From Candidatus Heimdallarchaeota archaeon (GTDB lineage: Archaea; Asgardarchaeota; Heimdallarchaeia; Hodarchaeales; Hodarchaeaceae), in the NCBI GenBank assembly GCA_048881705.1, contig JBHLSH010000008.1:1-64000 (forward strand): a stretch of 64,000 nucleotides of DNA, written 5' to 3'. Below the pieces are notes generated by a model that searched no databases, was not told where the DNA came from, and saw only the letters and a program-made list of their open reading frames with translations. The translations under genes were made by a program, and so were the position numbers. Position 1 is the first letter of the stretch; the number at the start of each line of letters is the position of its first letter. Shown here one piece after another: positions 59,599-64,000 of the stretch.

Positions 59599-61011
59599 AT
59601 GGAAACATCTCCCGAGGCAATTATGAGAAAGTTTGGTTTAGAGTTCATTAAAGATAACGCGAAAGATCGGAAGATCGCTATCCAGACCCTAGGGGTAACC
59701 TTCAAGAACGCAATGCAGACTTTGGGGAGATCAAGTGTTATGGCTATCGCTAGGGTGGAAGATAGAGAATACATAGATGATCTGTTTGAAGAACTTCATA
59801 ACGAAACTAACCGAACAATTGAAACTCAGCTGACGCGCCTCACTGTTAAAGCATTTAATTGGATTAAAAACATTTTAGTATCCTCAGAGAAATTAATTAT
59901 TACTGAGGAAGGTTCAAACGAGGCGTTGGTGAATGAACTTCGCGAAAAGGTGCGAGATCTTCAGCAACAATCGAAAATGCAGTCGGATGAGCTATCGCGC
60001 CTTCGATACGCTCACGAGGCGGCTGCGGATCAGATAAAAGAGAAGGAAGGTCTAGTCCAACGGTTAGAACAGAAATTTTCATCTATTAAAACAGAATTGC
60101 AGGAGCAATTGATCGCAGAAAAAACCCGTGGAGAAACGCTTTCCAAGCAAATTGAAACGATGGATCAAAAAATCAAAACTCAATCGGTTGAGCTATCTGA
60201 GAAGGATTTACAAAATCGAAAATACCAAAATGAGGCGAATGAACTTAGCATGCAGTTGGTGGTGCATAAAACTGAAATCAATAGACTTCAACAGTCGTTA
60301 GAACAGAAAAATGAAACAATTGAAAAGATAAACATCTCTACAGATCGAACAGCCGCCGAGGCCATGGCAGCATGGGCTGAGAGTTATCAAAAACAGGAGA
60401 TCAGCTTTCAAGACCAGTTGACAGCGGCCCGCCAAGAGTATGAGGGAACGATGCAGCAAAAGCTAGAAGAAGCGGCTGATCGATTCGAGGGGCAGATTGC
60501 TGCCCTGAAACAAAAGGTTCGTCTTGCTGAATCGCAAACCGCAAATCAAAGCGATGCCTATACTAGTAAAGTCTCTGAATTATCCACTAAACTTAAACAG
60601 ATTGAGGAAAGAAACAAAGAACTGGACAACTCAGTCGTAGAATTAATCCAGAAAAACGACCGGCTTGAGAAGGACTTGACCGAACAACGAATTCGTAATG
60701 ATAAACTTCTATGGGATATTGAAGCTGCAAAGAATGCTGGCCCCGCCATTTCATTAACGGATATTCAGAAGACTACCAGTAAATTGAAAAACGTCAATGA
60801 ATACATTGATCAGGTTCTCCAGCTCTCCAATTTTTCAATGATTACGATTTTACTCCGTATGGATGGGAGAATGAGTCTTGATCACCTTGCTAAGTCGGTT
60901 GGGATGGATCCAGTGGTACTGGAAAACCAGCTCCAACCATTACATAAACGAGATTTGATTAATATTCAATCAGATGGACAAATCGTCGCAAATATTCCCA
61001 AGGGTGCATAA
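59599..61011 (+). CDS. Long coiled-coil protein with C-terminal winged helix
   Basis: About 280 aa of E/K/Q/L heptads, ending in ITILLRMDGRMSLDHLAKSVGMDPVVLENQLQPLHKRDLINI. Confidence 0.85.
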   Translation: METSPEAIMRKFGLEFIKDNAKDRKIAIQTLGVTFKNAMQTLGRSSVMAIARVEDREYIDDLFEELHNETNRTIETQLTRLTVKAFNWIKNILVSSEKLIITEEGSNEALVNELREKVRDLQQQSKMQSDELSRLRYAHEAAADQIKEKEGLVQRLEQKFSSIKTELQEQLIAEKTRGETLSKQIETMDQKIKTQSVELSEKDLQNRKYQNEANELSMQLVVHKTEINRLQQSLEQKNETIEKINISTDRTAAEAMAAWAESYQKQEISFQDQLTAARQEYEGTMQQKLEEAADRFEGQIAALKQKVRLAESQTANQSDAYTSKVSELSTKLKQIEERNKELDNSVVELIQKNDRLEKDLTEQRIRNDKLLWDIEAAKNAGPAISLTDIQKTTSKLKNVNEYIDQVLQLSNFSMITILLRMDGRMSLDHLAKSVGMDPVVLENQLQPLHKRDLINIQSDGQIVANIPKGA

Positions 61012-61759: not shown

Positions 61760-62710
61760 ATGTCAATTAAAGTGTTAACGCTAGACAAACCCGTTTACCC
61801 TTCGAGTCTCATTAAAAACCACGGAATCTTGGGCCAGATTGGCAATACACCGTTAATTGAACTAAACCATTTTTTTTCCAAGAAAAAAAATGTCAAAATC
61901 CTTGCCAAGGCTGAATGGTTAAATCCTGGCGGTTCTGTTAAGGATCGCGCTGCGCTTTACATGGTTGCTCAAGCAATTCAGGATGGAAAGCTCACAAAAG
62001 AAAAAATCATCCTTGATGCTTCATCTGGTAACACGGGTATCGGATATGCGCTAGTGGGAGCGGCGCTCGGGTACAGGGTTATGATTTGTATACCCAAAAA
62101 TGCCTCACCTGAACGTTTAAGACTGTTAAAAGCATATGGAGCGGAATTAGTCTTGACCGATCCACTTGAAGGGATTGATGAGGCAATACTGACCGCTCGG
62201 AAGATGAAAGCTGCCGATCCCGATTTGTATTACTATCCTGACCAGTACAGCAATGAGGCAAACTGGATGGCACATTATCACACCACTGGCAAAGAAATAT
62301 GGGAACAGACTCAGGGACGGGTAACTCACTTTGTTGCAGGTTTGGGAACAACAGGAACTTTCACTGGAACCTCTAGGTTTCTGAAGTCAAGGGATCCAAA
62401 GATTCAAACCATCGCTCTCCAACCTGATTCACCATTTCACGGTTTAGAGGGTTTAAAGCACATGGAAACCTCCCTGGTTCCTGCGATTTACGACTCTCGC
62501 CTTGTTGATGAAATGCTTTTTATCTCATCCGAGTTGAGTCAAAGCTTAACTCAAGAATTGGCAAGGAAAGAAGGACTTCTGATTGGACCTTCTTCTGGAG
62601 CGGCTTTGGCTGGGGTTCTCCAAATTGCGGAACGGATTGAAAAAGGCGTCATTGTAACTGTTTTTCCAGATCGTGGGGATAGATATCTTTCCGGTAAGTT
62701 TTGGGAGTGA
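61760..62710 (+). CDS. cysM: PLP-dependent cysteine synthase family protein (CysM-like)
   Basis: IGNTPL, NPGGSVKDR (PLP lysine), SSGNTG, GLGTTGT, GPSSGA and FPDRGDRYLS motifs. Confidence 0.93.
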   Translation: MSIKVLTLDKPVYPSSLIKNHGILGQIGNTPLIELNHFFSKKKNVKILAKAEWLNPGGSVKDRAALYMVAQAIQDGKLTKEKIILDASSGNTGIGYALVGAALGYRVMICIPKNASPERLRLLKAYGAELVLTDPLEGIDEAILTARKMKAADPDLYYYPDQYSNEANWMAHYHTTGKEIWEQTQGRVTHFVAGLGTTGTFTGTSRFLKSRDPKIQTIALQPDSPFHGLEGLKHMETSLVPAIYDSRLVDEMLFISSELSQSLTQELARKEGLLIGPSSGAALAGVLQIAERIEKGVIVTVFPDRGDRYLSGKFWE

Positions 62711-62715
62711 TTTAA

Positions 62716-63135
62716 TTGACGATTCACATTAGAAAATCTGAGTTAAAGAAGATTCAAAACCACGCGGTAGGTGAATTTCCATACGAATGCTGTGGAATAC
62801 TTATTGGCACGTCCGCTCCGTCTCTTCGCGTTACAGAAGCCCGTAAAGTTCCTAATACTAATCGTACGATAAAAACAAGGCGTTATAATATCGATCCAAT
62901 GAGCTATAGAAAGATCGAAGAAGAAACCGAAGAAAATGGAATTGAAATTCTGGGTATATATCATTCTCATCCCAACCACCCTGCTACTCCCTCCGAGTTT
63001 GATTTAAACAATGCATTTCCGAATTTCTCATACATCATCCAATCAATAGACGATGGGAAGGTGGGAGCGATTACTTCATGGCGATTAGATCCATCAAGGA
63101 TGAAATTCTACCAAGAACCTATTAGAATCACATAA
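62716..63135 (+). CDS. mec: M67/JAMM metallopeptidase (Mec-like CysO-cysteine peptidase)
   Basis: PYECCGILIG and the JAMM motif YHSHPNHPATPSEFD. Confidence 0.92.
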   Translation: MTIHIRKSELKKIQNHAVGEFPYECCGILIGTSAPSLRVTEARKVPNTNRTIKTRRYNIDPMSYRKIEEETEENGIEILGIYHSHPNHPATPSEFDLNNAFPNFSYIIQSIDDGKVGAITSWRLDPSRMKFYQEPIRIT

Positions 63136-63152
63136 ATTGAGATGAATTAATT

Positions 63153-63434
63153 ATGGAAACCGTTATCTTAATACCGACTCCCTTACGAACTTATACGGAT
63201 AATCAAAAGGCGATAACTCTGACGGGAAATACCGTTGGAGATATCTTGGAGCAACTCACGATCCGCTTTCCGAAGTTGGGAAGCCATTTATACAATGAAC
63301 ATGGAAATCTTCGTAGTTTTGTTAATGTGTACCTAAACGATGAGGATATACGTTACTTGGACAATGAGAAGTCTATTATCAAAAACGGAGACACCGTTTC
63401 AATTATCCCTTCAATTGCAGGAGGAAAAGCGTGA
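63153..63434 (+). CDS. moaD: MoaD/ThiS/CysO ubiquitin-like sulfur carrier with C-terminal GG-KA extension
   Basis: IPTPLR, FVNVYLNDEDIRYL and SIIPSIAGG-KA-stop. Confidence 0.93.
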   Translation: METVILIPTPLRTYTDNQKAITLTGNTVGDILEQLTIRFPKLGSHLYNEHGNLRSFVNVYLNDEDIRYLDNEKSIIKNGDTVSIIPSIAGGKA

Positions 63435-64000
63435 GTGTATCTACCTACGTTAGAGGAACAAAAAATAGCGGCCCAAACCGACCTTTCACAAGAAGAGATA
63501 ATCAGGTATAGCCGTCATTTGATCCTTCCGGAAGTTGGAGTCAAGGGTCAACAAAAGCTAAAACAGGCACGAGTCCTCCTAGTAGGCGTAGGAGGTCTGG
63601 GATCCCCTCTGGCTCTATATCTTGCAGCAGCGGGTGTTGGAACGATTGGGATTGTTGACCATGATAAGGTCGATTTAACGAATTTACAGCGACAAGTGAT
63701 TCATTCGACGGAAGACCTCGGTAAATCAAAACTAGAGTCCGCCCGCGCTCGAATTCTCGCGATTAATCCTGAAATAAAGGTAATAACACACGAAAAAGAA
63801 CTTGCCTCTGAAAACGCGCTTGATATCATAAAGAACTACGATATTGTAGCGGATGGAACAGATAATTTTCCCACGCGGTACTTGATCAACGATGCCTGCG
63901 TTCTCCTCGGCAAACCAAATGTTTATGCTTCAATATTTCGTTTCGAAGGTCAGGCATCTGTTTTTTACGCTGAAAAAGGGCCATGTTACCGTTGTCTATA
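63435..64000 (+). CDS. moeB: MoeB/MoeZ (E1-like adenylyltransferase), 3'-truncated by the window edge
   Basis: Translated by hand: DLSQEEIIRYSRHLILPEVGVKGQQKLKQARVLLVGVGGLGSP...SNLQRQ-like TNLQRQ...DGTDNFPTRYLINDAC...CYRCL. It starts with a GTG directly after the moaD stop, in the same frame. Confidence 0.95.
   Translation, partial: MYLPTLEEQKIAAQTDLSQEEIIRYSRHLILPEVGVKGQQKLKQARVLLVGVGGLGSPLALYLAAAGVGTIGIVDHDKVDLTNLQRQVIHSTEDLGKSKLESARARILAINPEIKVITHEKELASENALDIIKNYDIVADGTDNFPTRYLINDACVLLGKPNVYASIFRFEGQASVFYAEKGPCYRCL

Follow-up and report, generated by a model that had tools for sequence, protein, structure and literature searches.

Four genes on one strand close the window, by which we mean the whole 64,000-nt stretch of DNA that was analysed, and encode a CysM-type synthase, a JAMM protease, a sulfur carrier and a ThiF-family protein (Table 1). 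They belong to a metagenome-assembled genome (MAG) of 3.96 Mb in 155 contigs, which is 91% complete with 7.5% contamination. An earlier note on this DNA had named the last three genes JAMM, moaD and moeB, and the Pfam matches to Prok-JAB, ThiS and ThiF agree with these identities. The NCBIfam scores are lower than the respective cut-offs: the CysM-type protein reaches 350.8 bits with cysM TIGR01138 (cut-off 394.2), the JAMM protein scores 77 bits with the desampylase model, again under the cut-off, the carrier gains 55.3 bits with SAMP1 (cut-off 60), and the ThiF-family protein, whose best matches are MoeB and MoeZ, obtains 503 bits with MoeZ NF005902 (cut-off 647). The JAMM translation carries the intact motif E...HSHPNHPATPSEFD (HxHx7Sx2D). 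The moeZ gene extends beyond the window to contig position 64622, and in the full protein of 395 aa (L001 1836-3023) the GxGxxG motif, both CxxC pairs and the C-terminal rhodanese loop CRSGARS are all intact. At the domain level, the locus belongs to the known operon type that combines ThiS, E1-rhodanese, JAMM and cysteine synthase genes (type 4c of Iyer et al.). Directly 5' of the operon lies an ORF of 470 aa (59599-61011, +) with Glu/Lys/Gln-rich, heptad-like stretches, which looks coiled-coil.

Table 1. Features of the operon at the end of the window and of its carrier-moeZ junction
Feature	Position	Strand	Description
cysM-like PLP-dependent cysteine synthase	61760..62710	+	316 aa; TGA stop; Pfam PALP, E 1e-72
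JAMM/MPN+ metalloprotease (Mec-like)	62716..63135	+	139 aa; Pfam Prok-JAB, E 3.3e-23
CysO-like ThiS/MoaD sulfur-carrier gene	63153..63434	+	93 aa, ...IAGG-KA, stop included; Pfam ThiS (PF02597), E 2.9e-15
Gly-Gly codons GGA GGA = Shine-Dalgarno site GGAGG	63420..63425	+	10 nt 5' of the moeZ GTG; sequence
Two-codon Lys-Ala tail after the di-glycine, presumably trimmed	63426..63431	+	tail hypervariable among relatives
Carrier TGA stop	63432..63434	+	aligned codon TAA in the sister genome (G001)
moeZ 5' part (E1-like adenylyltransferase + rhodanese), GTG start	63435..64000	+	Pfam ThiF; PF00899 + PF00581

Stop, spacer and frame at the junction

The carrier gene and moeZ share one reading frame across a single stop codon, with zero bases between the TGA and the following GTG (...GCA GGA GGA AAA GCG TGA GTG TAT CTA CCT...), exactly as the earlier note had described. 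This in-frame layout without a spacer is commonplace in the genome and is no more than chance would give, since 31 such pairs occur there. Specifically, the genome has 271 pairs of long ORFs (at least 80 aa each) that share a frame and are separated by one stop only; in 31 of these 271, an ATG, GTG or TTG stands directly behind the stop. For genes that abut, an in-frame junction is a 1-in-3 outcome. Large zero-spacer pairs include C5:18706 (863 aa, TGA, ATG, 724 aa) and, on the minus strand of C30, 26078 (599 aa, TAA, ATG, 914 aa); each of the 31 could represent coupled genes, one split gene or a pseudogene.

The codon at the junction can be followed through a small clade of related genomes. 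In the sister genome, the MAG of Candidatus Thorarchaeota archaeon isolate TM1M.79 (G001; 89% identity in the carrier and 97% in MoeZ), TAA stands in place of the TGA, and the GTG behind it is the same. Four further clade members, with MoeZ proteins that are 73-75% identical, read either GG-R TAA ATG (L097; L098/L099/L100) or GG-K TAA GTG (L104), so that among the clade junctions read only the genome of the window has TGA at this codon; P0119 has the same gene coordinates (coordinates only). Unlike a recoding site, ordinary terminators and initiators behave in this way, the stop changing between TGA and TAA and the adjacent start between GTG and ATG. TGA is also a normal stop genome-wide, closing 731 of the 2348 ORFs of at least 200 aa (31%), among them cysM of the same operon, whose orthologue in G001 terminates at the same residue. 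An alternative genetic code was rejected on these grounds.

Outside the zero-spacer junctions, the spacing between the two genes is variable in Asgard relatives. TAATG overlaps of -1 nt occur in G203 and G296, ATGA overlaps of -4 nt in G248 and G186, spacers of +1 nt in G023 and L105, a spacer of +34 nt after a TAG in the Heimdallarchaeota record L106, and longer called overlaps in L107 and L108. L109 (carrier 1208-1495), with a spacer of +5 nt and a carrier that ends exactly at GG, is the member of the in-frame clade that lacks the zero-spacer layout. In the listed non-zero-spacer Asgard junctions, moeZ lies in another frame than the carrier. Thus, relatives have separate genes in varying frames, moeZ having its own start and ribosome-binding site, which is the arrangement that the earlier note had named as refuting evidence, pointing to chance in-frame adjacency. 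The start codon stands at the same aligned position, 23 codons 5' of RYSRH, in every member of the in-frame clade, and in G023, where the genes are separate and out of frame, the MoeZ tail before RYSRH has about the same length. The 15 codons behind the GTG, which had been taken for a linker, are the ordinary, poorly conserved N-terminal tail of MoeZ.

Fused and split forms of the carrier and MoeZ

Fused carrier-MoeB/MoeZ homologues, which the earlier note had mentioned for bacterial operons, do exist and are common in bacteria. When the joined translation of the two genes was used as the query, about 113 of the best 120 matches were ThiS+ThiF+Rhodanese proteins of 477-501 aa, collinear with the query at 59-63% identity and 99-100% coverage, in which 10-34 residues link the GG to RYSRH, compared with 26 in the joined reading here. 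True carrier-MoeZ fusions without a stop are also present in three Asgard genomes of the same class, L034 (G240:C225), L041 (G139:C289) and L035 (G192:C100); two of their linkers are Ser/Thr/Asp-rich and 34 residues long, and the third has 13 residues. G192 has an additional, unfused MoeZ copy on contig C24. A different picture emerges with MoeZ alone as the query, since the nearest 24 of the best 120 matches are all unfused and only 19 of the 120 are fused. After G001, the nearest MoeZ proteins (65-75% identity) come from records named Promethearchaeota, Hodarchaeales, Kariarchaeaceae, Heimdallarchaeota or Thorarchaeota archaeon.

A first tree had a mostly fused backbone, and the inference drawn from it was discarded, since the joined query that had supplied its rows places fused proteins at the top. 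We instead rely on a careful maximum-likelihood tree that comprises 48 MoeZ domains and was rebuilt after the MoeZ-only search. In this tree, a single clade (100/98) unites the Asgard sequences. Seven rows (99/92) make up a clade with the in-frame junctions and the protein of the +5-nt locus L109, and this clade is nested in one of 11 rows (96/89), the rest of which are unfused throughout. The fusions from Asgard genomes are placed in other parts of the tree, where each has a split form as its sister (96/87 and 100/99), and the tree requires at least 6-8 changes between the fused and split states. In the simplest history, split genes became in-frame abutting ones, for instance when one base was inserted into a TAATG overlap, and fusions arose on at least two independent occasions.

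The cysM-JAMM-cysO-moeZ operon is conserved as a whole among the Asgard MAGs of one clade (window 61760-64000; L034-L041, L097-L109). The nearest relatives of these MoeZ proteins outside the Asgard archaea are bacterial, at 60-68% identity, with several records named Terriglobia, Acidobacteria or Chloroflexota. These relationships suggest that a transfer between bacteria and Asgard archaea took place long ago. The fused architecture has been described before, together with a proposal that it moved from Acidobacteria to Archaea (PMC11237513), and the bacterial relatives of the Asgard operon fit this proposal for the fused form.

Probable coupled translation and its alternatives

Given these observations, we consider it very likely that the carrier and moeZ are two separate, translationally coupled genes in a CysM, Mec-like JAMM, CysO-like carrier and MoeZ operon of an Asgard (Thorarchaeota-type) archaeon, that the TGA is genuine, and that the shared frame is incidental and was inherited in one small clade. 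Translation of the carrier would end at the TGA, and the terminating ribosome would make use of the abutting GTG to begin moeZ (termination-reinitiation). Alternatively, a ribosome recruited to the GGAGG within the carrier's own Gly-Gly codons would start at this GTG. By either route the carrier and the E1 would be made in a coupled way, after which MoeZ would adenylate and thiocarboxylate the carrier, CysM would make cysteine on it, and the JAMM protease would release the product, as in Mycobacterium tuberculosis. From the sequence we infer that the genes are coupled, that the GTG is used and that no readthrough product is made.

The 3' end of the genome's 16S rRNA on contig C20, ...GGATCACCTCCT (also ...GGAUCACCUCCU), carries the anti-Shine-Dalgarno (anti-SD) sequence CCUCC, and SD-like motifs are about threefold enriched 5' of long ORFs (22% vs 8% in a control window). 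The distance from the GGAGG to the start codon ranges from 7 to 10 nt in the clade, with 7 nt in L097/L098 (ATG start) and 10 nt in the window. In Haloferax volcanii and E. coli, termination-reinitiation couples genes that lie -8 to +10 nt apart, a range enriched for pairs whose products interact and form complexes (Huber et al. 2023, PMC10666635); MoeZR and CysO do form a complex (PMC3227635). As a separate observation, the Gly-Gly codons spell GGAGG in 10 of 12 tight split junctions, compared with 38% of Gly-Gly pairs genome-wide, and those of two fusions (L035, L041) and of the +34-nt junction (L106) read GGTGGT, GGGGGG and GGTGGG. The choice of di-glycine codons may be shaped by a second role as an SD site, and since the loci are related and few, we make no claim on this point.

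The earlier note had offered three explanations for the shared frame: a recent fission, UGA recoding or readthrough, and a sequencing error. In the first case, an ancestral fused carrier-MoeZ gene would have been split by a nonsense mutation in its linker, leaving both halves in frame and without a spacer. The collinear fused proteins with linkers that bracket the 26 residues seen here, the three fusions in Asgard genomes of the same class and the repeated switching between the two states all speak for such a history. However, the 24 closest MoeZ homologues are all unfused, and with the in-frame clade nested among unfused lineages and the Asgard fusions placed elsewhere, a fused intermediate costs an extra step. 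Moreover, a one-base insertion produces TAA ATG from the common TAATG just as easily, whereas fission by a nonsense mutation would in addition require a new start codon immediately 3' of the stop. We therefore do not favor a recent fission and regard it as unlikely. A sequencing or assembly error, or a pseudogene, hiding a true sense codon within a fused gene is almost certainly not the explanation: the genome is a fragmented MAG with some contamination, but a stop also occupies this codon in an independently assembled MAG from the same genus, four further clade assemblies have a stop abutting a start at the same junction, MoeZ is recorded as a separate 395-aa product on two contigs, and both ORFs are intact with all catalytic motifs present.

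Readthrough or recoding of the UGA as Trp, Cys or Sec would yield both a free carrier and a carrier-MoeZ fusion that the JAMM protease processes. The frame is indeed open through the single UGA, UGA is generally the leakiest of the stops, the product of the neighboring JAMM gene could cleave after the GG, and natural fusions indicate that a fused product is viable. Yet the TAA codons in the sister and in the four further clade members contradict such a role. A search that took in archaeal as well as bacterial components of the selenocysteine machinery found no match to tRNA-Sec (RF01852) or SepSecS in the 91%-complete genome, and neither SelA nor SelD above the cut-off, and selenocysteine at the UGA was rejected. 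Both the stop (TGA or TAA) and the next codon (GTG or ATG) vary, which speaks against a programmed site. In the 4.5-kb locus, no Rfam match was found up to E=1, and the RNA fold at the junction is unremarkable relative to shuffled sequence (z -0.80), leaving no sign of a stimulatory structure. The residue that would align to the TGA, raised previously as possibly Trp, Cys, Sec or variable, is a stop (TAA) in relatives and falls within a variable linker in fused homologues, with no conserved residue and no conserved Cys apparent among the linkers listed. We find programmed readthrough hardly credible. One observation does count against an incidental frame: the zero-spacer layout persists in a clade whose MoeZ proteins are about 25% different, despite a change of one codon in tail length. 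This persistence could hint at selection on the frame, with occasional readthrough of the stop giving a carrier-MoeZ pro-protein that JAMM cleaves after the GG. If this were true, a single locus would provide both split and fused forms, and the clade would be a living intermediate between the two architectures; we consider this very improbable.

The separately translated, coupled carrier would still end in a two-residue tail. In relatives, the tail after the GG reads KA, FA, R, K, none, GME, N, L, TS or LK. Its first codon is AAA (Lys, 63426-63428) here vs TTC (Phe, L033 1774-1776) in G001. With all three bases changed in a carrier that is otherwise 89% identical, the tail is seemingly under no constraint, and such free variation fits a tail that is removed, while the carrier of L109, ending at Gly-Gly without a tail, indicates that the cap is dispensable. 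By analogy with known systems, the Lys-Ala tail is plausibly trimmed by the operon's JAMM protease, exposing the GG carboxylate, in keeping with the earlier note's view that the GG-KA carrier needs JAMM trimming. The operon's JAMM protease would in any event have to cut after the GG in each catalytic cycle, freeing cysteine from the carrier-cysteine adduct (PMC3227635). A capped carrier is known to be trimmed by a JAMM protease in the QbsE/QbsD pair, and the same has been proposed for CxnE/CxnF (PMC5925218); this role was also predicted where the carrier is fused to another protein (Iyer et al., PMC1779556).

Significance and comparison with known systems

As a junction of the ordinary coupled kind, the locus calls for no annotation as a selenoprotein, readthrough gene, pseudogene or fusion. 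The main value of the analysis is this negative result, namely, that an eye-catching pair of genes in one frame across a single UGA proves ordinary. Beyond this, the analysis shows that one clade of Asgard archaea has a complete CysM-JAMM-CysO-MoeZ operon of the bacterial type. The in-frame zero-spacer arrangement is only one point mutation away from a fusion, and since this gene pair repeatedly switches between split and fused states, the family is handy for studying how gene fusions arise.

The closest functional counterpart is the cysteine pathway of M. tuberculosis, comprising CysO, CysM, Mec+ and MoeZR (Burns et al. 2005, described in PMC3227635), together with operon type 4c (Iyer, Burroughs and Aravind 2006, PMC1779556). 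All four components are shared: a ThiS-fold carrier with a GG, a CysM-type PLP synthase, a JAMM protease and an E1 with a C-terminal rhodanese domain. Unlike in M. tuberculosis, the host here is an Asgard archaeon, and a single operon contains all four genes, moeZ following the carrier gene immediately. CysO of M. tuberculosis ends at GG, whereas the carrier here has a two-residue tail after it. In addition, the CysM-type and MoeZ-type proteins of the Asgard operon score under the NCBIfam equivalog cut-offs.

The fused MoaD/ThiS-MoeBR (MoeZR) proteins of cluster 356.3, found in Acidobacteriota, Chloroflexota, Gemmatimonadota and some archaea (PMC11237513), have the same domains in the same order, 59-68% identity and a comparable linker length. 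Here, however, a stop and a start codon separate the carrier from the E1, so the pair is not a single ORF and does not belong to the fused ThiS-MoeZR family. With regard to its spacing, the pair resembles the coupled genes described by Huber et al. (2019, PMC6728339; 2023, PMC10666635), since 0 nt lies within -8 to +10 nt and the partners interact. It differs in that overlaps of -4 and -1 nt are the commonest among coupled pairs, while the zero-spacer arrangement is less common and happens to keep one frame.

Residues after the di-glycine, together with a JAMM protease in the cluster, are likewise found for QbsE/QbsD of Pseudomonas fluorescens (GG-CF) and for CxnE/CxnF (GG + 10 residues) (PMC5925218). 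In contrast to those clusters, which serve thioquinolobactin and chuangxinmycin, the operon here includes a cysteine synthase, and trimming of its carrier is a prediction. Finally, the SAMP, UbaA and HvJAMM1 proteins of Haloferax volcanii likewise make up an archaeal set of ThiS/MoaD-fold protein, E1 and JAMM protease, and the best NCBIfam matches of the proteins encoded here include SAMP1, the SAMP-activating E1 UbaA and desampylase, all three under their cut-offs. What sets the Asgard operon apart from the Haloferax volcanii system is the rhodanese domain of its E1 and the presence of a cysteine synthase gene; these two features, along with the grouping with bacterial MoeZ-type proteins, point to sulfur transfer rather than protein conjugation.
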